From positions 61,194,001 to 61,258,000 of the forward strand of contig NC_135893.1 in NCBI RefSeq assembly GCF_964194155.1: a stretch of 64,000 bases of DNA, written 5' to 3'. The position numbers were made by a program, and so were the translations under genes. This DNA is from Cetorhinus maximus (lineage: Eukaryota). Below the pieces are notes generated by a model that was not told the origin of the DNA, did no database searches, and saw nothing but the letters and a program-made list of their open reading frames with translations. Positions 8,741-64,000 of the stretch are shown here, one piece after another (positions within the stretch are counted from its first letter, which is position 1; each line of letters opens with the position of its first letter).

Positions 8741-8799
8741 GGAACGAATAAATTAGATGTTTATCTCTGAATTCAGGCAATGAAATCCTAGCTGTCTCT

Positions 8800-9007
8800 T
8801 CCCGATTCCGGCCTCTTACTCCCAGATCCTCTTCGGTCCCGTCACTGAACGACATCTCGGCCAGAGGATAACCAAGGCTTGTGGGGTCTGGGTCGGACTG
8901 TCCAGCGGCCCTGCTTCCGCTCCGTGTCGAGGCTCCGGGTGTTTGTCGGCGAGGCTATAGCAACGGGAGCGAGTCCCGACCCGACACCGCTGGCCGACTG
9001 ACAGTTT
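8800..9007 (+). promoter_or_regulatory. SNX8: SNX8 CpG-island promoter / 5' UTR
   Basis: Locally CpG-dense. ETS-like 'gcttccgc' at about 8913 and RFX half-site-like 'ctatagcaac' at about 8955. Lies directly before an ATG exon with a GT donor. Confidence 0.65.
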
Positions 9008-18095: not shown

Positions 18096-18520
18096 GTAAA
18101 AATTTGGTGTGGCAAAATTATGATGTAATTGTGAAACTAGAAGTCTTCCCAAGTGCTCGGCTTCTTTGTTTGCCCTTTTTTGAGGGAGATTTGGTAATGT
18201 TCAGCTTGTAGATCGGATTAGCACCATACAAACAAACAATTAATGAATATCAACAGGGAATGAGAATGTACTGTTTTTGTTGACCTGCATGTGTGGGAAT
18301 CATCCATCCAATAACAGCACACGTACATTGCACCAGGTCTTCGAGGAAAGCCAAATGTGGCCTGAGTGTGCAATGCAGGGAGGGAGGAGAATGTGGCTAT
18401 GTAGTGAACTTCAGTGATGTGTTGTAAGTCTACAGCCTGACTGAATTGAATTACACCTTCCAGGCAAAGTACATAGTGATTATTGTTGTCCCACATGCTA
18501 GCACTGCCACTATATATCTT

Positions 18521-24664: not shown

Positions 24665-26400
24665 ATTCATGGGATGTGGGCATCACTGGCTAGGCCAGCA
24701 TTTGTTGCCCATGACTAATTGCCCTTGAGAAGGTGGTGGTGAGCTGCCTTTTTGAACTGCTGCAGTCCATGTTTGTAAGTACACCGAAAGTGCTGTTAGG
24801 GAGAGTGTTCCAGGATTTTGACCCAGCGACAATGGAGGAACGGTGATATATTTCCAAGTCAGGATGGTGTGTGGCTTGGAGGGGACCTTCCAGGTGGTGT
24901 TCCATTGCATCTACTGCCCTTGTCCTTCTAGATGGTAGTGGTCTTGGGTTTGGAAGGTGCTGTCTAAGGAGGCTTGGTGAGTTCCTGCAGTGCATCTTGT
25001 AGAGGGTACACACTGCTGCCACTGGTGGAGGCAGTGGATGGGGTGCCAATTAAGCAGGCTGCTTTGTCCTGGATGCTATTAAGCTTCTTGAGTGTTGTTG
25101 GAGCTGTACTCATCCAGGCAACTGGATAGTATTCCCTCACAATCCTGACTTGTGTCTTGTAGATGGTGGACAGGCTTTGGGGATTCAGGAGGTGAGTTAC
25201 TCGCCATAGGATTCCTAGCCTCTGACCTGTTCTTGTAGCTACAGTATTTATATGACTAGTCTAATTCAGTTTCTGGTCAGTGGTACCCCCTGGATGTTGA
25301 TAGTGGGGGGATTTAGCGATGGTAATGCCATTGAATGTAAAGGGCAATGGTTAGATTCTCTCTTGTTGGAGATGGTCATTGTCTGGTACTTGTGTGGCGT
25401 GAATGTTACTTTCCACTTGTCAGCCCAAGCCTGGATATTGTCCAGGTCTTGCTGCATTTGGACATAGACTGCTTCAGTATCTGGGGAGTCATGTCTGATG
25501 CTGAACATTGTGCAATCATCAGTGGACATCCCCACTTCTGACCTTATGATGGAAGGAAGATCATTTATAAAGCAGCTGAAGATGGTTGGGACTAGGACAC
25601 TAACCTGAGGAACTCCTGCAGTGATGGAACTGAGATAATTGACCTCCAAAACCACAACCATCTTCTTTTTTGCCAGGTATGACTCCAACCAATGGAGAGC
25701 TTTTCCCCCTGATTCCTATTGTCTCCAGTTTTGCTAGGGTGCCTTGATGCCACACTCTGTCAAATGCTGCCTTGGTGTCGAGGGCAGTCATTCTCCCCTA
25801 ACCTCTGGTGTTCAGCTCTTTTGTCCATGTTTGAACCAAGGCTGTAATGAGATCAGGAGCTGAGTGATCCTGGCGGAACCCAAACTGGGTTTCAGTTAGC
25901 AGATTTCTAAGCAAGTGCCACTTGATAGCACGGTTGATGATCCCTTCCATTACTTTGCTAATTGGCCGGGTTGAATTTGTCCTGCTTTTTGTGTACAGGA
26001 CATACCTGGGCAATTTTCCACATTGCCGGGTAGATGCCACTGTTGTAGCTGTACTGGAACAATTTAGTTAGGGATGCAGCAAGTTCTGGAGCACAAGTCT
26101 TCAGCACTATTGCTGGAATATTGTCAGGGCACATAGCCTTTACAGTGTTCAGTGCCTTCAGCCATTTCTTGATATCATGTGGAGTGAATTGAATTAGCTG
26201 AAGACTGGCATCTGTGATGCTAGGGACCTCTGGAGGAGACTGAGATCGATCATGCACTCGGCACTTCTGGCTGAAGGTTGTTGCAAATGCTTCTGCCTTG
26301 TCTTTTGCACTGATGTGCTGGGCTCCCCATCATTGAGGATTGGGATATTTGAGTTGTTTAATTGTCCACCACCATTCACAACTGGATGTGGCAGGACTGC
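24665..26400 (-). mobile_element. Non-LTR retrotransposon RT fragment, same family as 9300-10597
   Basis: PDNIPAIVLKTCAPEL, QFGFR, AFDRVWH, GVPQ, QQDLDNIQAW motifs; frameshifted. Confidence 0.9.
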
Positions 26401-26769
26401 AGACAGACAATTTACCATAGGGTCATGGCATATTTTGAAAGTCCTGAGCATGACCAATTCTTATCTTTCTAAAATATATCTATTCGGGGGATATGGCTGT
26501 CATTGCCATGGCTGGCATTTATTGGCTTCAAGAAAGTGTTGGTGAGCCACAGCCTTGAACTACTGAAGTCTGTGTGGTGAAGGAACTTTCAAAGTGCCTT
26601 TAGGAAGGGAGTTCCAGGATTTTCACCTGGTGACAGTAAAGGACCGCAGTCAATATATGTCCAATTCAGATGGTGTGACTAGGAGGTGATGCTTTTTTGA
26701 TGTGCTTCTCAACAGCTGTAACTTAGGTTTTGTTTATCTAACCTCCTCCATCCCTTTTCTGTATCTCAG

Positions 26770-26902
26770 TACCCTAGGCTCTGACACAACACCGGTTCCA
26801 TCATGGGCATCAGCAGCAAGCAACACATGGGGTACCCTGAAGCAAGCCCTTAAAGGCTTATCTGTGGAGTTTGCATTACTCGCCGATAAAGCTGCACAGC
26901 AG
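26770..26902 (+). CDS. SNX8: SNX8 exon 9 (STLGSDTTPVPSWAS..TWGTLKQALKGLSVEFALLADKAAQQ), GC donor
   Basis: Near identity to SNX8. Acceptor ctcag|, donor CAG|gcaagt, phase 0. Confidence 0.93.
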
Positions 26903-27441
26903 GCAAGTCCAGTAATTAAACACTGCCTTCTGCCACTGGGCTACAAAGAAAGAAAAATCTCTCATTTATAAAGTGCCTTTCATGACTAAGGACACCCCAA
27001 AGCACTTTACAGCCAATGAAGTATTTGTGAAGTGATGTAATGTAAAAAGAAGGCAGCAGTCAGTTAGTGCACAGCAAGATCTTATAGAAACAGTGTGACA
27101 ATTACCAGATAATCTGTCCTGTTAGTGATGTTGGTTGAGAGTTAAATATTGGCCAGGGCACTAAGGGGAACACCCTGCTCTTACTGGAACAGTACCATGG
27201 CATCTTTTATATTTACCTGAGAGGTCAAATGAGGCTTTTGTTTAAGATCTCATCTGAAAGATGCTACCTTCGACAGTGCAGCACACTCTCAGTACTGCAC
27301 TGGGATTGTTGGCCTAGATTTTGGCAAATCAGTTGCGGGTGATGAGTGGATCAGAGACACAGAAGAAGGGACAAATGAACTTTAATTGGAGTATAGAAAC
27401 TTGTTGCACAGTTTCTAAGTTTGATTCCATGCCTTGAACAG

Positions 27442-27510
27442 GGTAAGCGAGAAGAAGAGGAAGTGGTGGAAAAACTCAACCTTTTCCTGGATTTATTGCA
27501 GTCCTACAAG
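27442..27510 (+). CDS. SNX8: SNX8 exon 10 (GKREEEEVVEKLNLFLDLLQSYK)
   Basis: Matches VVEKLNLFLDLLQSYK. Acceptor acag|, donor AAG|gtcagt. Confidence 0.96.
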
Positions 27511-27716
27511 GTCAGTGTTACTACTGTGAATTACGTTTGAAGCGTGTCTGAGCTGCATTCCTAATGGGTCAGTCAACATGCAGAAATGGAGATGGGTTTT
27601 TCTTTCAGATATAATCCTTCAAGTTTTGATGATTGGATACACCCTGTGATTTAAGCATTTATTTTTAATTTAGTTTAGCCATAGTGCTGCATGCTATTCC
27701 AAGCATGAAGGCTGGC

Positions 27717-27800
27717 CTGGCCTACTGACTGTTGACAGTTCCCCATTCCAGTGCTCTGGCCTACTGACTGCTGAGAGTTCCCTATTCCAGTACTCTGGCC
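27717..27800. repeat. 39-bp tandem duplication
   Basis: 'ctggcctactgactgttgacagttccccattccagtgct' about 2.2 copies. Confidence 0.85.
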
Positions 27801-27983
27801 AGCATTGGTGACCCATCTGACCAACTGGCAATAGGAGGGAGCTGATGATGTACCTGCAGGACAAGACAAAATGGAAATTGTTTAATTTTTGGTCAGTTGT
27901 GGGAATGTATTATTCATTTTAGAGGTTACTTCAATCTCCTAAATTGAAGTTGAATTGCCTGTATTTGGACTTCTTGCTTTCAG

Positions 27984-28133
27984 GATTTGTGCGAGCGTCA
28001 TGAGAAAGGTGTCCTTCATGAGCACCAACGAGCGTTGCAGAAATACAGCTCCATGAAACGGCAGATGATGAGTGTAACTGTGCAGAACAAGGAGCAAATT
28101 TCTGTGGAGCAACTGGAGTCACGAATTGTGCAG
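27984..28133 (+). CDS. SNX8: SNX8 exon 11 (DLCERHEKGVLHEHQRALQKYSSMKRQMMS..VEQLESRIVQ)
   Basis: Matches SNX8. Acceptor ttcag|, donor CAG|gtgctc; 150 nt. Confidence 0.96.
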
Positions 28134-28519
28134 GTGCTCTACTCCTTTTTCATGTTTGCTGTTGTAGACTAGTCCAATCAAGTTTAGTATAACCTAATGA
28201 GTTTTAGCTGGCTCTTGGATTAAGGGTGGACCCCCAACAAAAATGAGGGGGTGTTGGTTCGATGAAGAGAAACTGAATTATGGGAATGAGTTGAAGATTT
28301 AATGATTGCACTGGGTGCTAGTTTTGTGAGTATGGAAGGTGTGTAATATGAAGCAATTGGAACACAGAAGAATTCTGAGTCCAAGCCTGCCCTTGACATC
28401 AAGAGAATGGTCATAAGCAGCTCTTGTCATGTGTTGAGGTCCATAAGTACAGGGCTCCTCAAAGAAAGTAAATCCATATTGGTGGTTGAATGATGTTGAG
28501 TTGGGGTTTTCAAACGACA

Positions 28520-28910
28520 ACAACTTGCATTTATATGGTGCCGTTAGCAAAGTGTCCCAAGGTGTTCCATAGGAGCTTAAGCAAACAAAGTTTGACAGCT
28601 AGCCACATAAGCTGCTTTTCGGGTAGAGGTAGGTATTAAAGAGCATCTTATAAGAAAAGAGAGCATGAGCAGCAGAGAGGTTTAAGGAGGGAGTCTTGCG
28701 CTTTAGGGCCTTTGTAGCTGAAGGCACATCTGCCAACGGTGGAATGATTAAAATTAAGGATGTGCAAGAGTTGAAGGATTGCTAAGATCTCGGAGACTTT
28801 TAGGGCCAGAGGAGGTTACTGAGATAGGGAGAGACAAGGCCATGGAAGGTTTTGTACACAAGGATAAAAATTTTAAAATTGAGGAATTTCTGGACAGGGA
28901 GCCAATGTAG
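28520..28910 (-). mobile_element. L2-type LINE 3' end; similar copies at about 15350(+), 38530, 40215 and 41605
   Basis: Tail 'caacaacttgcatttatatggtgcc' and body 'ttagggcc..agctgaaggcac..ccaacggtgg' recur across the window. Confidence 0.65.
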
Positions 28911-29413
28911 ATCTATTGAAAAAGTGATTGTGGGTAGAAGCGGGGCGGGTGCATGATGTGGAGTTTTGAGGTCCTGGGAAAGAACAAATTAAATTGAGAC
29001 GATTAAGGGAGGCGTTTGGCTATTTAGGAAATATTGGAAGAACTCAGCAGGATGAGGCCCTTCAGACTAATCCTTCAGTAATGGGTTGGGCGGGGGAGGG
29101 AGTGGTGATGGGCTGGTGGAAGATAAGGCACAAGGTGTGATTATCTTTCTGTCCCTCCTGTCATTTTCCCCCCACGCCTCCCAACTCCCATTTCTAATCT
29201 TTCTGTGGAGCAGTGGCTGTCATTAAGGCCATAAATATTTTAAAAATAGTCTGGAGTTTGAGATGTCATAAAGGTGGTGGCCTCCCATCAGAATGGCAAT
29301 AAACTGCTGGTAAATTCTGTTGAGCTGGGGCAGGTGGAATGTTACCTCCAGGCACTTTTGTAGTCTTTGTTCCTTTTTCACTAATATTGCCTTCAACTAT
29401 GACCTCATTTCAG

Positions 29414-29563
29414 CAAGAAAATACAATCCTGACCATGGAGCTCCGGAACTATTTCTCAATGTTTTGCCTGCACCAGGAGACTCAACTTATCCACACCTAC
29501 CTGCATATCACCTCCCATGTGCTGACTGCCTTCATTGATTCCCAAATCCAAGGGCACCGAGAG
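29414..29563 (+). CDS. SNX8: SNX8 exon 12 (QENTILTMELRNYFSMFCLHQETQLIH..SQIQGHRE)
   Basis: Matches MELRNYFS..CLHQETQLIH. Acceptor ttcag|, donor GAG|gtatgg. Confidence 0.96.
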
Positions 29564-29962
29564 GTATGGCTGGACCTGCAGTAGTGGCTAATGTATTTTC
29601 TTGTTATTTCTCCTCCTATCCTTGCTAAGGACTTGTGTACCCTCACGGTTGTGTGTGTGCTACCTGCCCTCCGGTACCTGGCCCATATGTCCATTCAGGC
29701 ACAAGCCTAAGAATGTTTGGCTGCTCAACTGTATGAGGTATCACCACTGAGTCCGATCCTTTCTACACATTTTTGCTAATGCTTGCCAGTTCCCTCAATA
29801 GATTTAATGGTTGGTGGCTCTGGAGGTTCTAATTTCACCATAACATTTAGTATTATGAAATATTGCAGCATCTTGGAATCTCCTTCAATGCTATTTTAAA
29901 CTACTGGTTGAATTAGTAGTTACTGGCTTGTGATTTGTATGTGTTTTTTTTTCCCTGCTTAG

Positions 29963-30082
29963 ATGAGTGAGGTGTGGAATGACTTGAAACCAAAGCTGGG
30001 AGGCCTTCTGCCCAATGGAATGCCATCACCCCCTCTGTCCCCAGGAAATTGGCAGAGCCCAACCTCCTTTTTCCCACAGTGA
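29963..30082 (+). CDS. SNX8: SNX8 last coding exon (MSEVWNDLKPKLGGLLPNGMPSPPLSPGNWQSPTSFFPQ*)
   Basis: Acceptor cttag|; VWNDLxPKL conserved; TGA at 30080-30082. Confidence 0.93.
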   Translation: MSEVWNDLKPKLGGLLPNGMPSPPLSPGNWQSPTSFFPQ

Positions 30083-33000
30083 ATTGAGATGTTCCTGCGT
30101 TTTTGATGGACAATTAAGTTTTTTCTTACCTCTTCCATGAAACATTCCGGATTCCTTTCTTACTAAAGGATGTTATCCAGAGTATGGTTTAAAATTGGTT
30201 ACTAAACCACAGCGACGCAAAGTTAAGTGATTGGAAAGCCAACCCATTTGTGTTGGACCAAGTGCTGCTGTTTAAGCAGAGATATTGGACCATTGAATTG
30301 AGTCTCTTCTCCCTTTGTTAATTGTCATTGTGTGGATTTATGGCCAATGTTTGATGTAATTGGAGCACGACTACATTGAAGTAATTGGGAAATTGTCTTA
30401 GTTTAGTTTAAGAAAATATTTAGAGTTGTCCTCGAAATAGTCACAGTGCCTCAGTGGGGATGGGAAACAGCTTTGGCAGAACTTCCCCCTCTCAGAAATG
30501 TAGCTAGGATCCAGATTACCCTGAGGTGCTTTATTCTAACTTCCTGGTAACTGTGTGCAGGCTATCAATCAATAAGCAATGACTATATCATTGAATGTTA
30601 CTTCTAACGCTGCTGGAAGAAATTACATTATTCTTCCCTTGTTTCACCTGCTTGAATAGCGCTGCTGGTTAATTGCGAAGACCTCTTGAGATGTGGTTCT
30701 AATCCTGGGGGGTTGGCAGCAACAAGTGGTACTTTGGTAGACCTGCTGAGGCAATCAAGAGTTTTATTCTTGGGGCTGTGGTGAGTCAGAACTAGTCCCA
30801 TTGCTTGCTTTTGAACAGTATATTCTATTTCATTCTCTTCTCCTCAAACCAGTAAATAAAGCTGAAGGATCTGATTAGAGAAACTATTCACTTTTGGTTT
30901 ACTTGAACCTAATGGGAGTCTGGTTTAAAAATGGACTGTTTAAGATTTGCAGATCTTGCTCCCAACTGCAATCTCTGCAGCCTAGAATGTTCACTTGGAC
31001 CCTAAGCCAACATGGATTTAAAGATGTATTGGCAATTGTGCCCGATGTGTACTCGTACTGATTTTGGTGTGAATGCACTTAATTGTTTTGATTGGAACTT
31101 TCCATTGCATTAACACTCCAATTGCACATGTCTAAAGAATTTTGTGAAGGTGCAAAGCAAAACCAAGTCTGTAATCTTGTTTGTGAGCAAAATCATGTCT
31201 TGTTAAAATGTCTTGTGGTGTGAATTCAGCTTAATTTCTTCCCTCCTCCAACTGCACGGAGGTTCTGCTCTGTAGAAGATCAAATTGTTGGCTGCAGATA
31301 TATATGTTGTACAATGCCCCTTGCAAATTGAAATTATAGCTTTTTTTTGTTTTTTGAAACTGTATATCGATTTTCACTTCAGTGTTGTGGACTGGAAGCT
31401 CAGCTTTTGAACAGTCGCATATCTGAAATACTTTTACACCTCTGAGGGTTTTGGAGAGGGGCTGAAGTGCTGGCCTCTGAAAGCACAACGGGAAATTCCA
31501 ATTTATACATGGAACTACAATCCTTTTTTAAGGTTTTGAGGATTTTTGTTAGGAATTGGCTGATTCCTCACAGAAAGCTATTCAATTATTATTTTTTAAA
31601 AATCCGAAATAATTTTAAGGATTTTTAAAATGGGCATATCTGGGTGTATAAATATGAGAATAGCAAGCTTTGGAAAAACAGGTTTGTCAGCATTTTTAAA
31701 AAGGAAAATAACCTTTTTGAATATAGACCTTTTAGACCAAATCCAGAATGGATTCACCTGAAATGTTAAGCAGTCTCCACAGATCACTGTATTGCGACCA
31801 TTTGAATGCAATAACTGACAGGGGCTATGTTGTCTACAATGTAGCACATTGATAGAACTCTTTACAAACTACTAACTCAATGGGGGTCACCTAAATCATG
31901 AGACATTTTCATGTAGATTATCAATGTCCCTTGAACTCCAGGACCTTGTAAAAACAGAAACAGATGCCATGCTGTAAACTCCCTCTATCTTGTGTGTGTT
32001 TTGTTCTGTTTTATAGCTGTTGCACAAGTTCCCAGGGTTTTTTGACAGTAATGTGAGGTCAAAATGGTGAAGTCAACCTTTGGGTGTTGGGGTGAGTGTT
32101 GATGAAGGACTCTTGGGTAGGATTGCAGGTTGATCTTGTAGAAAACACATTTATTGTACTTTATCTTGAACTGGTTTGGAATCAGGTTAAGCCTGTGAAA
32201 TCCAAATTTCCCTCAATTTGAGGGGAAAAGTTAATCAACTCTCTAAATTCGCAGTAGATTAGGAGGCAAGTGTCTTTGTCACAAAACTTGGAGACACAGG
32301 CCTTCATTATTTATATACACCCAGTAATTATTATTGCTACTGGTGTTAGCGTTCACAGTAAGAATACACTAGAATCCTGTAATTTCACAAAGTATTTGAA
32401 TCTTACCTTAAACCCTGTCATTGAGGGTTGGGAGAAATAATATCCATTTTGAAACTTCCTGTGGAAGTAATTTTTTTCAGCAACCTTTTCATTTCCTTAT
32501 CCAAGTTTTGAGCATGTTGGATTGTAACCAAATTTCCTACAACACAGCAGTGATTACACTTCAGAGAGTATCTCTTTGACTGTGAAGTGCTTTGTGATAT
32601 CCTAAGCTTTTGAGAGGCGTTACAGAAATTTGGTTTTTACTTTTTCCCCTCAACCTCTTGCCCTCCCTAACAACTAAAGCTTGTAAAATGAGTGTGGAAG
32701 GACTGAAACTCATTGGGATTGTTGTTTTGAAATGCCTCCAGTTCATAAAAAGATGTCACCTTTTCCATGGTGCACTACACCAGAGAAATACATGCAACAT
32801 GATGCTTATTCCAACTACAAAGTAATCAGCTTTTCTGCCATCCAGAATGTTGGTGTGTGGGTTTCATTTTGTTCTCTCCCTCCCACACTTAGTTCCTGAA
32901 TTTCCCTCCCTCTCATCCTTGATTTGGGTGATAGCTGAGCCTACTCACTCTCGGCAAGAACTTGAGAGAGGCAGCACAGAAGTAGTCATTGGGCTCCTTT

Positions 33001-45424: not shown

Positions 45425-48400
45425 TAGGGGTGGGAAACCTACGGCCCATGGGCCAGATCTGGCCCATTGCTCAATTTCATCTGGCCCACAGCAAGATTTC
45501 TAAAAATTAAAATTAGCTCAAGTTTTGTGTAGCCTGAATACATAAATCTATTGATCTTTCTATTTCCTAATTTACTTTTTTTTTGTTGTCTCAGATGATT
45601 TTTATTCACTTCACAGAATGTTGGTTTTGCCATCTAAGCCAGCATTTATTGCCCAATCTTAATTGTCCTTGAGAAGTTGGTGGTGAGCTGCCTTCTTGAA
45701 CCGCTGCAGTCCCTGCGGTCTAGGTACACTCACAGTGCTGTTAGGGAGGGTGTTCTAGGGTTTTGACACAGCGACAGTGAAGGAACGGCGATATATTTCC
45801 AAGTCAGGATGGTGAGTGGCTTGGAGGGAAACTTCCAGGTGGTGGTGTTCCCATGTATCTGCTGCCCTTGTCCTTCTAGATGGCAGCTGTCGTGGGTTTG
45901 GAAGGTGCTGCCTAAGGAGCCTTGGTGAATTTCTGCAGTGCATCTTGTAGATGGTACACACTGCTGCCACTGTTCGTCGGTGGTGGAGGGAGTGAATATT
46001 TGTGGAATCAAGTGGGCTGCTTTGTCCTGAATGGTGTAAAGTTTCTTGAATGTTGGAGTTGGACTCACCCAGGCAAGTGGAGAGTATGCCATCACACTCC
46101 TGACTTGTGCCTTGTAGATGGTGGACAGTCTTTGGGGAGTCAGGAAGTGAGTTACTCGCTGCACAATTCCTAGCCTCTGACTTGCTGTTGTAGCCAAAGT
46201 ATTTATGTGGCTAGTTCAGTTCAGTTTTTGGTCAATGGTAACCCCCATGCTGTTGATAATGGGGGATTCAGCAATGGTAATGCCATTGAACATCAAGGGG
46301 CTATTGTTAGATTCTCTCTTGTTGGAGATGGTCATTGCCTGACACTTATGTGGCCAGAATGTTACTTGCCACTTGCCAGCCCAAGCCTGGATATTGTCCA
46401 GGTCTTGCTGCATTTAGACATGGACTGCTTCAGTATCTGATGAGTTGTGAATGGTGCTGAACAGAGTGAAATCATCAGCAAACATTGCCACTTCTGACCT
46501 TATGATGGAAGGAAGGTGATTGATGAAGCAGCTGAAGATGGTTCGGCCAAGGACACTACCCTGAGGAACTCCTGCAGTGATGCCCTGGAACGGAGATGAT
46601 TGACCTCCAACAAATACAACTATCTACCTTTGTGCAAGGAATGACTCCAACCATTGGAAAGATTTCCCCCTGATTCCCATTGACTCCAGTTTTGCTGGGG
46701 CTCCTTGATGCCACACTTGGTCAAATGCTGCCTTGATGTCAAGGGCAGTCACTCTCACCTCACCTCTGGAGTTCAGCTCTGTTTGAACCAGGACTGTAAT
46801 GAGGTCAGAAACTGAGTGACTGTAGCAGAACCCCAACTGAGTGCCAGTGAGCAAGTTATTGCTAAGCAAGTGCCAATTGATAGCATTGTTGATGATCCCC
46901 TTCCATCACTTTACTGATGATGGAGAGTAGACTGATGGAGCAGTAATTGGCCCAGTTGAATTTGTCCTGCTTTTTGTGTACAGTACATAACTGGGCAATT
47001 TTCCAGATTTCTGGCTAGATGCCAGTGTTGCAACTGGAACAGCTGGCTAGGGGCGCGGCAAGTTCTTCAGTACTATTGCCGGAATATTGACAGGGCCCTA
47101 ACCTTTGCGGTATCCAGTGCCTTCAGTCTTTTGTTGATATCACATGGAGTGAATCGAATAGGCTAAAGACTGGCATCTGTGATGCTGGGGACCTACGGAG
47201 CAGGCAGAGATGGAGCATCCACTCAGCATTTCTGGCTGAAGATTGTCGCGAATGCTTCAGCCTTATCTTTTGCACTGATGTTCTGGGCTCCTCCATCATT
47301 TGAGGATGGGGATATTTGTGGAGCCTCCTCCTCCAGTGAGTTGTTTAACTGTCCACCGCCATTCACGACTGGATGTGGCAGGACTGCAGAGCTTAGATCT
47401 GATCCATTGGTTATGGAATCGCTTAACTCTGTCTATCACTTGCTGCTTATGCTGTTTAGCATGCAAGTAGTCCTGTGTTGTAGCTTCACCTGGTTGATAC
47501 CTCATTTTTAGGTATGCCTGGTGCTGCTCCTGGCGTGCCCTCCTGCACTGTTCATTGAACCAGGGCTGATCCCCTGGCTTGGTGGTAATGGTGGAGTGGG
47601 GGATACATGAGGTTGCAGATTATGGTTGAGTACAGTTCTGCTGCTCCTGATGGCCCACAGCGCCTCATGGATGCCAAGTCTTGAGTTGCTAGGTCTGTTC
47701 GAAATCTATCTCCTTTACCATGGTGGTAGTGTCATGCAACACGATGGAGGGTATCATCAGTGTGAAGATGGGAATTCGTCTCCACAAAGATTGTGTGGTG
47801 GTTGCTCCCACTAATACTGACATGGACACATGCATATGCGGCAGGCAGGTTGGTGAGGATGAGATCAAGTATGTTTTTTTCCTCTTGTTGGTTCCCTCAC
47901 CACCTACTACAGACCCAGTCTAGAAGCTATGTCCAACTTGGTCTGTGGTAGTGTTACCAAGCCATTCTTGGTGATGGACATTGAAGTCCCCCAGCCAGAG
48001 TATATTCTGCGCCCTTGCCACCCTCAGTGCTTCTTCCAAGTGTTTTTCAATATAGAGCAGTACTGATTCATCAGCTGAGGGGGTGCAGTACGTGGTAATC
48101 AGCAGGAGATTTCCTTGCACATGTTTGACCTGATGCCATGAGATTTCATGGGATCCGGAGTTGATGTTGAGGACTCCCAGGGCAACTCGCTCCTGACTGT
48201 ATACCACTCTGCTGGGTCTGTCCTGTCTGTTGAACAGGACATATCCAGGGATGGTGATGATGATGTCTGGGACATGCTCTGTAAGGTGTGTTTCCGTGAG
48301 GCTGTTGCTTGACTTGTCTGTGATACAGCCCTTCCAATTTTGGGGCATGCTCCCAGATGTCAGTGAGGAGGACTTTGCAGGGTTGACAGAACAGGGTTTG

Positions 48401-50561: not shown

Positions 50562-51588
50562 ATGGCACTTATACTATCAGAAACGCAGCAGCTAATTTGC
50601 GCACAGCAAGCCCCACAAACTACAATGGAATAAATTGTTGTTGATGAAATAAATGACTAGATGATGTGTTTTTCAGTGGTGTTGGTTGAAGGATAAATAT
50701 TGGCTAAGAAACCAAGGAGAACTCCTCTGTTCTTCTTTGAAAATTGGTCATATGCTCTGACATTTTATAGTGAGTTTCACTGCTTGATATTTGCTGCTCA
50801 CTAAGCAAAGGCTCAAGCCCATACAAGGTGGTTGTCTAATGATCAGGTAGCTTTTAGGTGGCATTCTTGGCTCAATGATAGTGCACACCAAAGCCTATTA
50901 TTTGAATATTGTTTAAAGTCCCGTGACGTACATAGAAAGTCCTGGGCGCAATTTGAATCCTCTGCTGACCTCAGTCAGAATGGCAGTAAGTGGTGGTACA
51001 GTTCACCTCTGTGCCCCTGGACCAGGGTGGGGAAAAATCAGATGCATTCACCACTTAGTGACTTCTCCGGGAAATTGCTTGCAACGAGTCAAGACAGGAT
51101 CCAGCTCAGCTATGATGACTTTGGTAGTTGAATAGCTTTGCAACACTCTCAGCCTGGGTGCATTAGCACTGGAAAACTCTCACAGAATAGTGCACAAAAT
51201 GTGTAAAATGCATTGAGACATCTTCCTGCCGTTAAGTGTTACAGATTTATGAGTCACTGGCATGCTAGGTGTCAGCATAGCTCAGTCGGTAGCACTCTTA
51301 CCTCTGCACAGGAAGGTTGTGGATTCATAATCCCACTCCAGAAACCTGAGCACTAAATGTTAGCTGACACTCCCAGCGCAATACTGTTGGAGGTTTGGAT
51401 GGGACATTAAAGTGATGCCCCCATCTGTCCTCCCAGGAGGATGCAAAACATCCCCTGGCACTTTTCAAAAAAGAAAAGTTAAGAGTTTGACAAAGGAGAG
51501 ATTGACAATCTCCTTTTCCCCCATCCAGCATCACCTGCTCCTCCCCACCTTAAACAGTATAAATTTCAGCACATTTCTGCTTTGTTTT

Positions 51589-51627
51589 AGCTCTGAAGAA
51601 GGGTCATAAGGACTCGAAACGTTAACT
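51589..51627 (+). ncRNA. Minimal hammerhead ribozyme (canonical CUGAAGA core) in old PLE 5' pseudo-LTR
   Basis: AGCT-CTGAAGA-A-GGGTC-ATAAG-GACTC-GAAA-CG-TT-AACT. Confidence 0.7.
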
Positions 51628-54600
51628 CTGTTTCTTTCTCCACGGATTCTGTAGACCACCTGAGTTTTTCCAGCATTTTCTGTTTTTGTTTCAGATTTTC
51701 AGCATCCACAGTATTTTGCTTTTATCTTAGTATTTAATTCACTGACACTTCACTTCCAGGAATGCTTACCTTGAAGGAGTACTGCTCTTCTCTCCGACAG
51801 GATTTCTGTTTGTCTCTTTGGCCCTGTTCCCTGCTGGTGTTTGACAAGGTGTTTACCAAAACTCGCCTTCACAGCCATATTTCCTTTCTCAGCGACTGTC
51901 TCTGTCTCCGACTTACCCAATGTGGATTCCAACTGAAGTTCCATCCCTCATGTTTTGAATCCACCCAGGATTTCAGGTATCTCCGGGACACACAATGTTC
52001 TTTGGACGGTTGTTCTCGCCGCATCCATGCACCGCCATATGAACACACTTGACCTTTCCATCCAGCAGCACCAAACCATCCTATCTCAAAGCTGTCTTTG
52101 ACCCCAGTTTCATTTTATTCTTCGTCTCATCCGATGCCTTAACAAGAAACTTTTCCTCTTCCTTTCAGGTGTTAAGGAATGCAAGCACCAACAATTTATT
52201 GATATCAATGCCCATCCTGAACCCTCCACCCCTTCCCGTCACTCTGACCCCATCCCTTCTTCTCATCCCAGCCCTTGCCTCTGACCTTCCCCTTTCTGAT
52301 GCTAAACGTTCATTACTCAGCAAGGGACTCAGTTTCATACCCTTACACCCTCACCTCAATGAATTTTGGCTCGGTACGATGCTGAACTCTTCTTCCACCG
52401 TCTTCGTCTCCACGCTTACTTCTTTGGGCAGGAGTCCTCCCTCTGTTCCACGGATCCTTTCACCCGCCTCCAGTATTCTCCCTCCACCTGGACCCCTCCC
52501 TCTGGCCGCTTACCTGCACTTACCTGATCTTTTCATTGTGAACTGTTGGCGTAACATCGGCTGTCTCAATTTCTCTGCTCCTGTAACCCACTCTAACCTA
52601 TCTCCTTCTGAACTCTGTTCTCTTAGTTCCAACCCTGACTTTGTTATCAAACTTGCCGACAAGGGTGGTGCTGTTGTTGTCTGTTGTACTGACTTCTACC
52701 TTGCAGAGGCTGAGCGCCAACTCTCAGACACTTCTTTCTATCTGGACTATGACCCCACCACTGAACATCAAGCCATTGTTTCCAGGACTGTCACTGACCT
52801 CATCTCCTCTGGAGATCTTCCCTCCACAGCTTCCAACTTCATAGTCTCCCAACTCGGGACAGCTCGCTTCTACCTCCTTCCCAAAATCCACAAACAGGAC
52901 TGTCCCAGTGAACCAACCGTGTCAGCCTGTTCTTGCCCCATGGAACTCATTTCTTCCTCTCTTGACTCTGTTCTCTCTCCCCCTCTCCAGTCCCTTCCAC
53001 CTATATCCGTGATTCCTCTGATGCCCTATGTCATATCAACAACTTCCAGTTCTCTGGCCCTAACCGCCTCCTCTTCTTCATGGACGTCCAATCCTCTACA
53101 CCTCCACCCCAACACCAGGATGGTCTGAGGGCACTCCGCTTCTTCCTGGAACAGAGGCCCGAACAATCCCCATCCACTACCACTCTCCTCCATCTGGCTG
53201 AACTTGTTCTTTCACTGAACAATTTCTCCTTCAACTTGTCTCACTTCCTTCAGATGAAAGGTGTGGCTATGGGTACCTGCATGAGCCTGTCTCTTTATGG
53301 GTTATGCGGAACATTCCATGTTCCAGTCCTACTTGGACCCCCTTCCACAACTGTTTTCTCGGTACACCAATGACTATTTCGGAGCTGCTTCGTGCTCTTG
53401 TCTGGCCTGGAAAAATTTTATCAGTTTTGCATCCAATTTTCACCCCTCCATCACCTTCACATGGTCCATCTCCGACACTTCTCTTCCCTTTCTCGACCTC
53501 TCTGTCTCCATTTCTGTTGTCAGACTGTTCACCAATATTCACTACAAGCTCTCTGACTCCCACAGCTACCTCAACTACAGCTCCTCACACCCTGCTTCCT
53601 GGAAGGGCTCCATTCCATTCTCTCGGTTCCTTTGCCTCCGTCGCACCTGTTCCAATGATGCCACATTCCAAAACAGTGCTTCTGACATGTCTTCCTTCTT
53701 CCTTAACCGAGGTTTCCCATCCACTGTGCTTGACAGGGCCCTCAACTGTGTCCAACCCATCTCCCACGCCTATGCCCTCACACCTTCCCCTCCCCCTCAG
53801 AACCATGATAGGGTTCCCCTTGTCCTCACTTTTCACCCCACCAGCCTCCGCATTCAAAAGATCATCCTCCGCCATTTCCACCAACTCCAGCATGATGCCA
53901 TCACCAAACACATCTTCCCCTTACCCGTTCCCCCCCGTCAGCATTCTGTAGGGACCTTTCCCTCTGAGACATCCCGGTCCACTCCTCCATCACCCTGAAT
54001 ACCTCATCCCCTTCCCATAGCACCTTCCCATGTGATCGCATAAGGTGCAACACCTGCCCCTTTACCTCCTCCCAAACACTCCTTTAAGGTGAAGCAGCGC
54101 TTCACTTGCACCTCCTTCAATTTAGTCTACTGCATTCGCTGCTCCCAATGCTGTGGTCTCTATGTTGGGGAGACCAAACGCAGACTGGGTGACCGCTTTG
54201 CGGAACACCTTCGGTCTGTTGCAAGCATGAACAAGACCTTCTCGCCGCTTGCCATTTTAACACACCATCCTGCTGTCATGCCCACATGTCCATCCTTGGC
54301 CTACTGTAATTTTCCAGTGAAGCCCAACGCAAACTGGAGGAATAGCACCTGATCTTCCGATGAGGCACTTTACAGCCTTCCAGACTTAACATTGAGTTCA
54401 ATAACTTCAGACCATGAACTCTCTCCTCTATCTTCACCCCTTTTTTAATCCCTTTTTCCAAGTTTAGTTTTATTTTTATCTAATTATTTTAATTTTTATT
54501 CATTGTTTTATCTCCTTTTTTATTCTCCCTTTTTTAAAATCCCATTTTCAATCCTTTTTCCCCACCACCACCCCTCCCCCAACCCACCCCAAAAGGGCCA

Positions 54601-54932
54601 TCTGTTACTTGTTCCATGGTGTTCTTTCACAGAGTGCTTACCCTTGTTATGCTATTATCACATTCTGCTTTCTTACCTTTATGCCACTATCAACACCTTT
54701 TTTAGCCCTTACCACTACCATTTACACTCCTTGACTTCATGACATCTTTGTCAGTCTCTCCATTGCTCCCATCCAGTTTCACCTGCTCCACCCTCCTTAA
54801 ACAGTATAAATTTCATCACATTTCTACTTCTCCTTGGCTCTGAAGAAGCGTCGTACGGACTTGAAATGTTAACAAAAACAGAATTACCTGGAAAAACTCA
54901 GCAGGTCTGGCAGCATCGGTGGAGCAGAGAAG

Positions 54933-54970
54933 AGTTGACGTTTCGAGTCCAATGACCCTTCAACAGAACT
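54933..54970 (-). ncRNA. Minimal hammerhead ribozyme, CUGUUGA-core variant (3' pseudo-LTR)
   Basis: Reverse complement: AGTT-CTGTTGA-A-GGGTC-ATTG-GACTC-GAAA-CG-TC-AACT. Confidence 0.65.
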
Positions 54971-55349
54971 GAGTGTAGTTAGGAGAGGGGTGAAATATAA
55001 GCTGGTTTAAGGTGGGGGGTGGGGTGGGGTGGGGGGAGAGAAGTTGAGGGTGGGGTGGTTGTAGGGATAAGCAAGCAGTGATAGGAGCAGAGAATCAAAA
55101 GATGTCACAGACAAAATGATCAAAGAGGTGTTGAAGGTGGTGAAATTATCTAAGAGAATGTGCTAATTAAGAATGGATGGCAGGACACTCAAGGTACAGC
55201 TGTAGTGGGGGTGGGGTGGAAAGATTGACAAGGTATTAGTTGTAGATTTAAAAATAATGGAAATAGGTGGGACAAGAAAAATCTATATAAATTATTGAAA
55301 AAAACAAAAGGGAGGGGGAAGAAACGGGGTGGGGATGGGGGGAGGGAGT

Positions 55350-58085
55350 TTAAGATCTAAAGTTGTTGAATTCAATATTCAGCCCGGAAGGCTGTAAAGT
55401 GCCTAGTCGGAAGATGAGGTGCTGTTCCTCCAGTTTGCGTTGGGCTTCACTGGAACAATGCAGCAAACCAAGGACAGACATGTGGGCAAGAGAACAGGGT
55501 GGAGTGTTAAAATGGCAAGCGACAGGGAGGTTTGGGTCTTTCTTGCGGACAGACCGCAGGTGTTCTGCAAAGCGGTTGCCCAGTTTGCGTTTGGTCTCTC
55601 CAATGTAGAGGAGACCGCATTGGGAGCAACGAATGCAGTAGACTAAGTTAGGGGAAATGCAAGTGAAATGCTGCTTCACTTGAAAGGAGAGTTTGGGCCC
55701 TTGGACGGTGAGGAGAGAGGAAGTGAAGGGGCAGGTGTTGCATCTTTTGCGTGGGCATGGGGAGGTGCCATAGGTGGGGGTTGAGGAGTAGACCAGGGTG
55801 TCCCGGAGGGAACGATCCCTACGGAATACCGCCAGGGGGGGTGAAGGGAAGATGTGTTTGGTGGTGGCATCATGCTGGAGTTGGCGGAAATGGCGGAGGA
55901 TGATCCTTTGAATGCGGAGGCTGGTGGGGTGATAAGTGAGGACAAGGGGGACCCTATCATGTTTCTGGGAGGGAGGAGAAGGCGTGAGGGCGGATGCGCG
56001 GGAGATGGGCCGGACACGGTTGAGGGCCCTGTCAACGACCGTGGGTGGAAAACCTTGGTTAAAGAAGAAGGAGGACATGTCAGAGGAACTGTTTTTGAAG
56101 GTAGCGTCATCAGAACAGATGCGACGGAGGCGAAGGAACTGAGAGAATGGGATGGAGTCCTTACAGGAAGCGGGGTGTGAGGAGCTGTAGTCGAGGTAGC
56201 TGTGGGAGTCGGTAGGCTTGTAATGGATATTGGTGGACAGTCTATCATCAGAAATTGAGACAGAGAGGTCAAGGAAGGGAAGAGAAGTGTCAGAGATGGA
56301 CCATGTGAAAATGATGGAGGGGTGGAGATTGGAAGCAAAATTAATAAATTTTTCCAGGTCCCGACGAGAGCACGAAGCAGCACCGAAGTAATCATCGATG
56401 TACCAGAGAAAGAGTTGTGGGAGGGGGCCGGAGTAGGACTGGAACAAGGAATGTTCCACATACCCCATAAAGAGACAGGCATAGCTAGGGCCCATGCGGG
56501 TACCCATAGCCACACCTTTTATTTGGAGGAAGTGAGAGGAGTTAAAGGAGAAATTGTTCAGTGTGAGAACAAGTTCAGCCAGACGGAGGAGAGTAGTGGT
56601 GGATGGGGATTGTTGGGGCCTCTGTTCAAGGAAGAAGCTAAGGGCCCTCAGACCATCCTGGTGGGGGATGGAGGTGTAGAGGGATTGGACGTCCATGGTG
56701 AAGAGGAAGCGGTTGGGGCCAGGGAACTGGAAATTGTTGATGTGACGTAAGGTGTCAGAGGAATCACGGATGTAGGTGGGAAGGGACTGGACAAGGGGAG
56801 AGAGAAGGGAGTCAAGATAACAAGAAATGAGTTCCGTGGGGCAGGAACAGTCTGACACGATCGGTCTGCCAGGACAGTTCTGTTTGTGGATTTTGGGTAG
56901 GAGGTAGAAGCGGGCCGTCCGAGGTTGGGCGACTATCAGGTTGGAAGCTGTGGGAGGAAGATCTCCAGAGGAGATGAGGTCAGTGACAGTCCTGGAAACA
57001 ATGGCTTGATGTTCCGTGGTGGGGTCATGGTCCAGGGAGAGGTAGGAGGAAGTGTCTGTGAGTTGACGCTCAGCCTCCGCGAGGTAGAGGTCAGTGCGCC
57101 AGACAACAACAGCACCACCCTTGTCAGCGGGTTTGATAACAATGTTGGGGTTGGACCTGAGAGAACGGAGTACAGTAAGTTCAGAGAGAGACAGATTGGA
57201 ATGGGTGAGAGGAGCAGAGAAATTGAGATGGCTAATGTCATGCCGACAGTTCTCAACGAAAAGATCAAGAGAAGGTAAGAAACCAGAGGTAGGGGTCCAG
57301 GTGGAGGGAGAATATTGGAGGTGGGTAAAAGGATCCGTTGAACGGGGAGAGGACTCCTGCCCAAAGAAGTGAGCACGGAGACGAAGACGGCGGAAGAAGA
57401 GTTCAGCATCGTGCCGAGCCCGAAATTCATTGAGATGAGGGCGTAAGGGTATGAAACTAAGTCCTTTGCTGAGCATTGAACGTTCAGCATCGGAAAGGGG
57501 AAGGTCAGGGGGTATAGTGAATACGCGGCTGGTGCTGGGATTGGAAGATGGGGTGGGGACGGAGGGACAAGCAGGGGTGGAGGGTCCCAGATGGGTGTTG
57601 GTGTCAATGAGTTGTTGGAGCTTGTGTTCCTTAGCACTTGAGAGAAAGAGAAAAAGTTTCTTGTTGAGGCGTCGGATGCGGCGAAGAATAAAATGAAACT
57701 GGGGGCACGCGCAGCTTTGAAAAAGGGTGCGGCAGTGCTGCTGGAGGGAGAGGTCGAGTGTGTTCATATGGCGGCGCATGGCACTGAGTGTGGATCTCAG
57801 AATGCGACGGGAACAGCAGTTAGAAAAACGTTTTATGTCCCGGAGATACCTGTAATCCTGGGTGGGTTCGAAACAAGAGGGATGGAATTTCAGTTGAAAT
57901 CCACGTGGGGTGAGTCGGAGACGGAGACAGTCACTGAGAAAGGAAATATGGCTGTGAAAGCGGGTTTTAGTAAACACCTCGTCAAACACCAGGAGAGAAA
58001 TGGAAAGCAATGAAAGTGGACAAGGCAGAAGAGACAGGCGGAAATCCTGTCGGAGAACAGAGCAATACTTCTTCAAGGAAGGCAT
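55350..58085 (-). CDS. PLE reverse transcriptase + zinc knuckle + GIY-YIG endonuclease (ATG at 58085; frame open from 58109)
   Basis: IKPADKGG, FYLLPKIHK, GRPIVS, MDVQSLYTSIP, GVAMGTRMGPSYA, YIDD, LPFLD, CPRKRCNTC, VYCIRC..LYIGET. No stops or frameshifts. Confidence 0.95.
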   Translation of the reverse strand: MPSLKKYCSVLRQDFRLSLLPCPLSLLSISLLVFDEVFTKTRFHSHISFLSDCLRLRLTPRGFQLKFHPSCFEPTQDYRYLRDIKRFSNCCSRRILRSTLSAMRRHMNTLDLSLQQHCRTLFQSCACPQFHFILRRIRRLNKKLFLFLSSAKEHKLQQLIDTNTHLGPSTPACPSVPTPSSNPSTSRVFTIPPDLPLSDAERSMLSKGLSFIPLRPHLNEFRARHDAELFFRRLRLRAHFFGQESSPRSTDPFTHLQYSPSTWTPTSGFLPSLDLFVENCRHDISHLNFSAPLTHSNLSLSELTVLRSLRSNPNIVIKPADKGGAVVVWRTDLYLAEAERQLTDTSSYLSLDHDPTTEHQAIVSRTVTDLISSGDLPPTASNLIVAQPRTARFYLLPKIHKQNCPGRPIVSDCSCPTELISCYLDSLLSPLVQSLPTYIRDSSDTLRHINNFQFPGPNRFLFTMDVQSLYTSIPHQDGLRALSFFLEQRPQQSPSTTTLLRLAELVLTLNNFSFNSSHFLQIKGVAMGTRMGPSYACLFMGYVEHSLFQSYSGPLPQLFLWYIDDYFGAASCSRRDLEKFINFASNLHPSIIFTWSISDTSLPFLDLSVSISDDRLSTNIHYKPTDSHSYLDYSSSHPASCKDSIPFSQFLRLRRICSDDATFKNSSSDMSSFFFNQGFPPTVVDRALNRVRPISRASALTPSPPSQKHDRVPLVLTYHPTSLRIQRIILRHFRQLQHDATTKHIFPSPPLAVFRRDRSLRDTLVYSSTPTYGTSPCPRKRCNTCPFTSSLLTVQGPKLSFQVKQHFTCISPNLVYCIRCSQCGLLYIGETKRKLGNRFAEHLRSVRKKDPNLPVACHFNTPPCSLAHMSVLGLLHCSSEAQRKLEEQHLIFRLGTLQPSGLNIEFNNFRS

Positions 58086-58227
58086 TTCTTGAAGAGAAGT
58101 GGCAGTCAATTAAACACAGAGATAAAAACAAAAAACTACTGCGGATGCTGGAAATCCAAAACAAAAATAAAAACAGAATTACCTGGAAAAACTCAGCAGG
58201 TCTGGCAGCATCGGTGGAGAAGAGAAG

Positions 58228-58265
58228 AGTTGACGTTTCGAGTCCAATGACCCTTCAACAGAACT
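58228..58265 (-). ncRNA. Minimal hammerhead ribozyme, CUGUUGA-core variant (5' pseudo-LTR)
   Basis: Same sequence as the 54933-54970 copy. Confidence 0.65.
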
Positions 58266-58959
58266 GAGTGTAGTTAGGAGAGGGGTGAAATATAAGCTGG
58301 TTTGAAATGTTAACACTGTTTCTCTCTCCACAGATGCTGTCGGACCTGCTGAGTTTTTCCAACGCTTTCTGTTTTTGTATATTTAAGTTGAGTTTTCCCT
58401 GGTATCCTGGCCAAAATTTATTCCTTGACCAACACCGGAAGCAGATCACTTTGCTGTTTATGCGACCTTGTGCACAAATTGATTGTCGTCTTTCCTACAT
58501 TACAACTTCAAGTCTACTTCATTGACTGTAATGTGCTTTATGACCTTGAGATTGTTAAATTTACATGTCTTTCTTTTAATGGCATCTACATTAAAATGTT
58601 ACACTATTTATATCTACTTAAAAATCATTTTCTTATTCAGCTATGGACCCTGAATATATGTAGTCCAGCTGGGTAATACTGACCATATATTACCTTCCGA
58701 TGGTAGAAAAATCAAGCAAAATTCTAACAATGATTTTACTATCATATTGGAAATATTTGTAATCTATTAAACATAAATAATTTTAATTTCAAAATCTGAA
58801 TCACAATACGCTTATGTTGGAAAATGTACCAAAAACACAGAATCACGGAGTCTCTATGTAATATATCTTTTATAAAAATATATTGATACACAACTTCTTA
58901 AAATTTGGCACTAAAGTAAAGCTTTCTGTCTTTCAAGGGAGTGGAAAATAAAGGAGTGG

Positions 58960-60390
58960 AAGTCCTCAATATCATCCAGGACAAAGCACCCTGCTTGATT
59001 GGCATCACATCCACCCACCTTAAACATTCATTCTCTCCGCCTGTGACGCACAATGGCAGAAATGTCTACCATGTACAAAATGCACCTGAGCAACTTTGAC
59101 AGCACTTTCCAAACCTATGATCTCTGCCACCCAGAACGCCAAGGGCAGCAGATGCTTGGGAACACCACCAATTGCAAGTTCCCCTCCAAGCCACACACCA
59201 TCCTAACATGGAACTATAGTGCCTTTCCTTCACTGTCACTGGGTTAAAATTTTGGGACACCCTCCCTAAATCACTGAAGGTGTATCTTCACCAATGGACT
59301 GCAGTGGTTCAAGAAAATGTCTCACCAACACCTTCTAAAGTGCAATCAGATAGTGTTCTAGGCTCAACCATCTTCAGCTGCTTCATCAATGACCTTCCTT
59401 CCATCATAAGGTCAGAAGTGGGGATGTTGCTGATGATTGCACAATGTTTGGCAGCATTCACGACTCCTCAGACACTGAAACAGTCCATGTCCAAATGCAG
59501 CAAGACCTGGACAATATCCAGGCTTGGGCTGACCAGTGGCAAGTAACATTTGCGCAACACAAGTGCCAGGCAATGTGTATCTCCAACAAGAGAGAATCTA
59601 ACCATCGCCCTTTGACATTCAATGGCACTACCATTGCTGAATCCCCCCCCCCCATATCAATATCCTGGGGGTTACCATTGACCAGAAACTGAACTGGACT
59701 AACCATATAAATACTGTGGCTACAAGAGCAGGTCAGAGGCTAGGAATCCTGTGACGAATAACTCACCTCCTGACCCCCCAAAGCCTGTCTACCATCTACA
59801 AGTCACAAGTTAGGAATGTGATGGAATACTCCCCACTTGCCTGGATGAGTGCAGCTCCAACAATACTTAAGAAGCTTGACACCATCCAGGACAAAGCAGC
59901 CCATTTGATTGGCACCCGATCCACAAACATTCACTCCCTGCACCACTGATGCACAGTAGCAGCAGTGTGTACCATCTACAAGATGCACTGCAGGAACTCA
60001 CCAAGGCTCCTTAGGCAACACCTTCCAAACCCATGACTGCTACCATCAAGAAGGACAAGGGCATCAGACACATGGGAAAACCACCACCTGGAAGTTCCCC
60101 TCCAAGCGGCATACTATCCTGACTTGGAAATATATTGCTGTTTTTCACTGTCGCCGGGTCAAAACCCTAGGACTCCCTGCTTAACAGCACTGTGGGTGCG
60201 CCTACACCACATGGACTGCAGCGGTTCAAGAAGGCAGCCCACCACCACCTTCTCAAGGGCAATTAGGGATTGGCAATAAATACTGGCCTGGTCAGTGATG
60301 CCTACATCCCATGAATGGATAAAAAAAAACAACAAATGCTGGCCTAGCCAGTGATGCCCACATCCCATGAAAGAATATTTTAAAAAAAAT
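58960..60390 (+). mobile_element. Two stacked 3' fragments of the CR1/L2-group LINE family, ending in A-rich tails
   Basis: FINDL, QQDLDNIQAW, VCTIYKMHC motifs; duplicated 3' end 'gatgcc(c/t)acatcccatga'. Confidence 0.85.
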
Positions 60391-62834: not shown

Positions 62835-63008
62835 AACAGAAAATGCTGGAAAAACTCAGCAGGTCTAGAAGCATCTGTGGAGAGAGAAACAGAGTTAACG
62901 TTTGGGGTTGGTATGACCCTCCTTCAGATCACATGGACTCGAAACCTTAACTCTGTTTCTCTCTCCACAGATGCTGCTAGACCTGAGTTTTTCTAGCATT
63001 TTCTGTTT
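62835..63008. mobile_element. Fold-back element made of two inverted PLE pseudo-LTR ends
   Basis: Left arm 'aacagaaaatgctggaaaaactcag..cagagttaacgttt' is the reverse complement of right arm 'gaaaccttaactctg..gcattttctgtt'. Confidence 0.85.
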
Positions 63009-64000
63009 TTCTTGCACCTTCCACTGTTTAATGCCCAAAAGTGTTGATAGTGTGTTCTCTGGTTTCTGTCAGTGTTTTTCCCCCTAAGAAGACATATCAG
63101 CGCAGCTGAGGCGGACGCTATTCTAAGCTTTCTGCCCTCTTGGGGAAGTTGAGAAATCCTTGGTTCTGTCACTGATATGGTACCTTGCTTGTATATCAGA
63201 GTATTCACTGTTAGGCTGTTTTAATTTTAACAGAAATCATTAGTTGGAGTTCAAAGTTTATATTTAATGCTTGGCATATAAGTTAAATTGCCTGCTCTGG
63301 GAGTAAATATGTGGGGTAAGAGCTACTACCTCTATGGAAATAAACTATTGTCTTTTTAAAGAAAAGTTATTGAATAAACAGCATGTCTGGATAGATAAAA
63401 ATAAAGTTGTCTGAAAATTGTGTTTAAGGTTGAAATACTCTAATGGATGTCCATACATCACTGCTTGTCTCTGGCGATTGAGCCCATAATTCAGGATGAC
63501 ACTTGCAGTGCAGTATTGATGAGTGTTACACTGTTGGAAGCTAAACCCAGACCCCATCTGCCCTCCCAAGTGGATGTAAAAGATACCATGACACTATTTT
63601 GAGGACATTTCTCCCTGGTATCCTTCTAATATTTATTCCTCAACCAACATCATTAAAACAGATTGCCTGGTCATTATCACATTACTGTTTGTGGGATCTT
63701 GCTATGCCTGGATTGGTTGCTGCGTTATCAACATTTCAAAGTGACTATACTTCAGAAAGCGCTAATTGGCTGTAAAGCACTTTGGAACACCCTGAGGTCG
63801 TGAAAGATGTTATACAAATGCAAGTTTTTCTTTCTAGTTTGAAAACCTAGAAATTGTTTGTATAATAAGTGCCTACAATGTTTTACTATATTAAAGGCAT
63901 TTTATAAATGCAAATTACTATTTGTGATGATCAACTGTTGTGATTACAACAGCCACACGGAAGGATGAATGACTTAATGTAATCTTGTTTTTGAAATTTT

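Follow-up and report, generated by a model that had tools for sequence, protein, structure and literature searches.

A young Penelope-like element lies antisense in the hammerhead of an older relative, at a site matching a symmetric target motif

We analysed a 64,000-nucleotide stretch of the Cetorhinus maximus genome (NCBI RefSeq assembly GCF_964194155.1, contig NC_135893.1, forward-strand positions 61,194,001 to 61,258,000; hereafter the window, with positions counted from its first letter), in which one Penelope-like element (PLE) is nested in another at 51509-58378. The older PLE lies on the plus strand (51509-54874, again 58302-58378) and its 3' pseudo-long terminal repeat (pseudo-LTR) is split by a young PLE on the minus strand, the two elements being 80.8% identical over 2,977 bp. 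On the plus strand, the older element comprises a 5'-truncated upstream pseudo-LTR (51509-51690), in which a motif scan found an uninterrupted hammerhead motif (core 51593-51623), and a reading frame broken by frameshifts and stops (51738-54411), which the young protein matched by tblastn as six pieces in three frames at 48-81% identity. Its 3' pseudo-LTR left of the insertion (54757-54874, plus strand, 83% identical to 51509-51626) carries a minimal hammerhead core at 54840-54870 that begins with CTGAAGA and ends in GAAA TG TT; stem II is worn, ACGT in stem III has become ATGT, and the predicted scissile bond, in the numbering of PMC4209133 (this and the other papers are cited for their accessible parts), follows 54870. 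As a candidate minimal type I hammerhead, the motif has its cores in the old copies and a stem II that can be folded at 51585-51635; monomer-fold z-scores are 0.0-1.0, and no hammerhead family reached E 1 in an Rfam scan of the window.

The young PLE (54875-58301, minus strand) is flanked by a 14-bp target-site duplication, TTGAAATGTTAACA, which takes in stem III of the old hammerhead as well as its GAAA core. The last four bases of its left copy (54861-54874) are shared with the element's end, and the first two of its right copy (58302-58315) also match the element. As the preliminary description of this locus had stated, the old pseudo-LTR resumes after 58315 (58316-58378, plus strand): its two halves match the old 5' pseudo-LTR from end to end, in register, at 83% up to reference position 126 and 84% from position 128. 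The antisense placement of the young element within the hammerhead, also described there, was likewise seen. Self-comparison showed a direct partial tandem arrangement with no inverted arm, running in element orientation from a 5'-truncated pseudo-LTR (58166-58303) through a 'tail' that is absent from the 3' end (58120-58165; long and short end classes were counted genome-wide) and an open frame of 919 codons (55350-58109) to a full 3' pseudo-LTR. The two pseudo-LTR copies form a 138-bp direct repeat at 98.6% identity (54871-55008 and 58166-58303), whereas those of the old element are 83-84% alike.

The open frame encodes a reverse transcriptase (RT), a CX4CxxC linker and a GIY-YIG nuclease with an internal CxxC. 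Its Pfam matches are weak (RVT_1, E 1.6e-5; GIY-YIG, E 2.2e-4; both below the curated cut-offs), and its motifs include DKG at 329, YIDD at 570, the linker CPRKRCNTC at 785, LVY at 822 and YIG at 835. Within LVYCIRCSQC...YIGET (822-839), two cysteines lie between GIY and YIG and histidines follow downstream, which by sequence gives a CCHH motif. A single frame that carries RT together with a GIY-YIG domain at its C terminus, the cysteine pair, partial tandem pseudo-LTRs, a one-ended tail and a target-site duplication are all features of endonuclease-containing (EN+) PLEs, and a CX2-5CxxC linker before the nuclease is a feature of Neptune/Nematis elements (PMC8557442). The young element therefore appears to fit the Neptune/Nematis type as defined in the accessible text of that paper, a placement made from motifs rather than from an RT tree. 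Its hammerhead motif, found by motif scan on the minus strand at 54934-54966 with a second copy at 58229-58261, has the core CUGUUGA, in which U replaces the canonical A6. Across these two positions and loci L361, L362 and L410, the cores of young hammerhead motifs depart from CUGANGA and are CUGUUGA, CUGCUGA or CUGCCGA.

A misassembly is not favoured, given the intact duplication, the halves in register and one exact contig over the left junction. This contig, from read run X18, which is probably the assembly's own sample, is identical to 54814-54893 and extends 19 letters beyond the junction (the tool's bar is 31 letters); no listed contig piece bridged the right junction. Contig depth was approximately 8-10 near the left junction and 16 on the right flank, and this halving may reflect two haplotypes. 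No empty allele was seen in contigs of the same organism or of two related organisms, where repeat contigs swamped both comparisons. The unique right flank (58506-58960) is present in the related organisms, which may carry an empty site.

Genome-wide searches showed that the hammerhead is a recurrent target. A 16-nt sequence from the young element's end has 44,487 matches in the 3.99-Gb genome; short, junction-forming ends made up 55/97 or 152/204 of the young ends sampled, and the number of young short ends genome-wide is estimated at 25,000-33,000. Around 30 independent insertions lie at the hammerhead spot, on nearly the same duplicated segment whichever their orientation. Merging these events by place by hand left 16 short ends in antisense and 13 in sense orientation, with two long ends in addition, the present locus included, and since the anchors were exact matches the total is a lower bound. 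Identical PLE junctions recur at five places on contig C24, and also on C785 and at L430 and L431; each was counted once, and the repeated C24 junctions point to segmental duplications there. The first junction pattern placed 4 of its 5 hits in old hammerheads and the second 7 of 18, six of them at stem III, while an opposite-orientation pattern gave 19 hits, six in pseudo-LTRs and five of these at the same hammerhead site. With positions in nt relative to the ribozyme's predicted scissile bond (0 being the bond after 54870), 8 of 14 hits of an anchor-based pattern fell at 0 to +4 and five at +20/21, so that 13 of the 14 occupy two narrow clusters. A broader pattern had 11-12 of 48 hits at the hammerhead site and a long-tail pattern all three. 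The sense-orientation pattern had 10 of 16 (nine events) at this site, one a few bases off and five at the +21 site.

The preliminary description had placed the young element exactly on the cleavage site. Its position within the hammerhead stands, but the exact register does not follow: the last four bases (AACA) and first two (TT) of the duplication equal the element's own ends, so the plus strand could have been nicked anywhere from 0 to +4. A nick at 0 would imply a duplication of 8-10 bp and one at +4 a duplication of 12-14 bp. Among 152 unselected short ends we validated 94 duplications, scoring only lengths of at least 10 bp, with the distribution 10 bp (4), 11 bp (8), 12 bp (10), 13 bp (24), 14 bp (32), 15 bp (11) and 16 bp (5). 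As 66/94 are 12-14 bp and 4/94 are 10 bp, +3 or +4 is the likelier nick at this locus. Elsewhere, two events are unambiguously nicked at 0 (L070 and L359), and the other unambiguous nicks are at -1 (L428), +1/+2 (L077), +2 (L430), +4 (L358) and +5 (L434), which puts two of seven at the scissile bond. Loci L427 and L435, whose called duplications lie inside element-like sequence, were excluded from the nick positions.

A target-site logo of unselected insertions, a check proposed in the preliminary description, gave a motif that is mirrored in both flanks, RnCARnC | 13-14 bp | GnYTGnY, and that is not simply A+T-rich. Of 112 half-sites from 56 insertions with 13-14-bp duplications, chosen without regard to hammerheads, 89 had a purine at -7 and 99 had one at -3, and C stood at -5 in 54 and at -1 in 47; A/T was preferred just inside the duplication, and the pattern was the same at both ends. 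A model trained on these insertions reached a leave-one-out area under the curve (AUC) of 0.91. On 11 held-out insertions, all picked for having a pyrimidine as the final target base, the AUC was 0.97 and every half-site (22/22) had the purine at -3. Duplications are 66% A+T, but A+T richness alone was rejected as a target rule, as the strongest positions are the purine and C positions in the flanks. Obligatory microhomology at the priming end was also rejected (none in 27/58 junctions, one base in 15/58), and there were no microsatellite targets among the 32 listed 14-bp sites.

Applied to 27 intact old hammerheads, the model placed its top peak of 105 positions at +2/+3 (16-20x), compared with 0.2x at the scissile bond, because GGAC before the GAAA core serves as the left half-site and CTCTGTT after the cut as the right one. 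For 73 unselected anchor copies, the predicted summed fold over 0 to +4 was 17.6 (bootstrap 6.3-44), and the observed value was 13-17, or 12-15 without the present locus. The 14-bp site of the present locus ranks among the best 1.9% of window positions, and 45% of random 105-bp stretches contain a peak that reaches the height of the hammerhead's, which makes the hammerhead a good but unremarkable site. These data also bear on coincidence in A+T-rich DNA, where, with hammerhead cores numbering approximately 160,000 and insertions in the tens of thousands, a few would meet by chance. Uniform placement predicts 2.3-3.0 events at 0 to +4 per anchor set and the rate over the whole region equals the genome average, yet eight junctions were observed at 0 to +4, a roughly 3-fold excess, and the two narrow clusters both recur in the opposite orientation. 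The flank motif is strong and amounts to more than A+T richness, and the held-out motif test refutes pure chance, to which we give almost no credence.

A more specific proposal in the preliminary description was that PLEs home on hammerheads, through RNA-DNA pairing or recognition of the ribozyme's palindrome, inserting antisense at the cleavage site and so giving rise to tail-to-tail pairs. About 30 events do share the site, the junctions of the present locus and of most antisense cases would formally allow the scissile bond to have been the nick, and L070 and L359 are unambiguously there. Insertion rates nevertheless largely refute homing. Hammerhead-site events represent about 0.1% of young insertions (~30 among 25,000-33,000), none of 152 unselected short ends is at a hammerhead, and only 6/152 have any PLE match in their 114-bp flank. 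The proposed enrichment check was negative for the region: in the 30 bp after the hammerhead core there were 14 junctions behind 146,337 anchors against 13.4-17.6 expected if placement were uniform, only their distribution being uneven, with a peak at 0 to +4. Young copies among the anchors, having been exposed for less time, would modestly raise the ratio of observed to expected. Neither orientation nor register is fixed, as antisense and sense short ends are equally common (16 and 13) and the unambiguous nicks run from -1 to +5.

Pairing with the element's RNA fares no better as a targeting mechanism. The tail-near stretch, where the resemblance of old copies to the young RNA is greatest, had four junctions behind 176,663 anchors against 16.4-21.6 expected, a 4-5-fold depletion, and the young GTC-type anchor featured in 0/14 junctions although 15 of the 73 anchors sampled are young copies, which resemble the RNA at ~98%. 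In vitro, a PLE protein has been reported to prime without homology and without need of ribozyme cleavage (PMC11167929, accessible text). The data do not support the palindrome as a determinant either, since the informative bases sit in the flanks outside the duplication and the ACGT of stem III had already been lost from the hammerhead copy targeted here. True tail-to-tail joints are rare, and 67/94 unselected insertions terminate with an element tail in inverted orientation, within a single duplication. This is the head-to-head layout described in the accessible text of PMC3846280, so the common inverted form differs from what PLE-into-PLE insertion would produce. With an unrelated site hotter still (see below), we consider homing very improbable. 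The preliminary description had itself allowed that any targeting is not exclusive, as two other young copies in the window lie outside hammerheads. Both do. These copies are 5'-truncated, one at 15961-17261 with a 13-bp duplication, AGGCACTTGTATA, and a middling motif score, and the other at 18514-19729 with ends that share only the 7-bp repeat ATATCTT.

The unrelated site lies in a repeat whose translation reads SKFADDTKLGG, from the RT region of a long interspersed nuclear element (LINE), which we take to be CR1-like from this motif; Pfam gave only a faint RVT_1 match (E 0.094). Eight junctions of the broader pattern fell at one place in this repeat, and a dedicated count found 10/10 junctions in one register behind 9,952 anchors, 240-320x the average. 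Loci of this hot spot include L157, L159, L173, L174, L180 and L184. The inserts differ in the six loci read, and the left flank of the site is a perfect RnCARnC. Per copy, the LINE site is approximately 18 times hotter than the hammerhead (10 per 9,952 versus 8 per 146,337).

In a middle-aged subfamily, the pseudo-LTR has a second hot spot 20-21 nt downstream of the ribozyme cut, to which it has no tie; this site was hit in both orientations (antisense L144, L145, L151, L152 and L153; sense L420, L422, L426, L432 and L435). Two symmetric hot spots within 25 bp, the downstream one above the model interval, are what might be expected if pseudo-LTRs were mildly self-targeting, either shaped as better substrates or bound via an extra recognition element. 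Against this stand the lack of a net excess over the 30 bp, the depletion nearer the tail, the absence of unselected ends at hammerheads and the hotter non-PLE site, which is likewise under-predicted. Mild self-targeting is therefore unlikely in our judgement.

Instead, we consider it likely that a young Neptune-type PLE inserted antisense at a motif-matching spot, and that the hot spot reflects a sequence preference that the integrase shows in general, acting on a stretch of DNA present in ~150,000 copies. The ribozyme would then play no part in targeting, its DNA being one good site among many. As we reconstruct it from the junctions, the GIY-YIG protein, probably as a dimer, would read one half-site per strand and nick both strands approximately 14 nt apart. 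Reverse transcription would start from the plus-strand nick at the short end of the element's RNA, priming without need of homology, as the 27/58 junctions that have none suggest, and the element's far end would be joined via the 2-base overlap. The underlying code, in which a Neptune-type integrase acts as a symmetric dimer that reads a spaced RnCARnC half-site outside a fixed 13-14-nt stagger, was not found in print, and we think it somewhat more probable than not to be correct. We doubt the further step of combining this code with a pseudo-LTR shaped to carry two sites, one of them on the ribozyme core, that draw new copies beyond what the code alone would do.

Several points weigh against a general sequence preference as the whole explanation. 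The point estimate of the model over-predicts the hammerhead site about twofold (17-22 events against 8 observed), and it falls short elsewhere, with 25-33x observed against 0.2-6.9 predicted at +20/21 and 240-320x against 12-210 at the LINE site, where the prediction comes from only two empty copies. The model, which is small, does not capture the whole signal, and under-prediction at these two sites indicates that it lacks determinants. The LINE control was picked after being seen, which biases its size upward, the share of short ends is uncertain (the two samples above), exact-match anchors miss diverged targets, and both the dimer and the nick positions are read from junctions alone.

Elsewhere in the window, two old pseudo-LTR ends at 62835-63013 form a head-to-head fold-back joined inside their hammerheads, with no duplication of at least 7 bp found, and this fold-back gives rise to a sub-threshold Rfam mir-14 match. 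A G-rich minisatellite with units of 15-42 bp (5328-8954) contains several reading frames that run without a stop for up to 1,208 codons, but is low-complexity sequence and probably not a gene. Another repeat, by appearance LINE 3' ends, is present in four copies at 81-86% identity (9300-10597, 24658-26403, 45634-47390 and 58969-60323).

Homing, if true, would have given the ribozyme a link to target choice and accounted for inverted PLE structures; on the present data, it does neither. The selection and cutting of DNA by PLEs has been studied in vitro with one active protein, described as A+T-preferring. From a symmetric half-site motif and a fixed stagger, the exact nick on each strand can be predicted, and models of a dimer and of two-ended priming can thereby be put to a direct test. 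Repeated PLE insertions at one base of an abundant repeat are also to be expected, and should not be taken as evidence of shared ancestry or homing. No hammerhead hot spot, PLE target logo or spaced half-site motif turned up in our literature search, which did not extend to Repbase or to most subscription journals.

By sequence, the hammerhead motifs of these elements resemble published PLE minimal hammerheads (PMC4209133) in a putative type I minimal core, the extra base before stem II and a palindromic stem III, the last lost from the copy targeted here; the young family differs in its U at core position 6. That paper reports thousands of dispersed single hammerhead copies and their presence in fish Neptune elements; its accessible text holds no discussion of insertion targeting. 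The present nesting resembles Pen2a_Av in Pen3 of Adineta vaga (PMC3846280), where a PLE was secondarily inserted in an opposite-orientation PLE with a duplication and where inverted structures are mostly head-to-head. Unlike the present locus, that duplication is 9 bp, and it is a single case without a rate test; no position relative to a hammerhead was found for it in the accessible text. Antisense nesting of PLEs and pseudo-LTR hammerheads, as far as these two papers are accessible, are thus already published. EN+ Neptune/Nematis PLEs are described in the accessible part of PMC8557442 as having moderate target preferences, variable duplication lengths and a microsatellite bias ascribed to the linker, whereas the present family has mostly 13-14-bp duplications and a symmetric flank motif. 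The closest biochemical comparison is PAc, a Poseidon-clade protein from the green anole with a reported preference for A+T-rich DNA with ATT (PMC11167929). The accessible text contains no spaced two-half-site motif or hammerhead hot spot, although supplementary figures could bear on this. PAc, a predicted dimer, cleaves and extends the two strands and has two start sites that define the tail; it can nick its own pseudo-LTR, primes without homology, and does not need the ribozyme for insertion in vitro. The dimer, nick and priming steps proposed here agree with this behaviour as reported. Set beside these systems, the nested insertion is an ordinary find and the target motif is a modest, testable addition.

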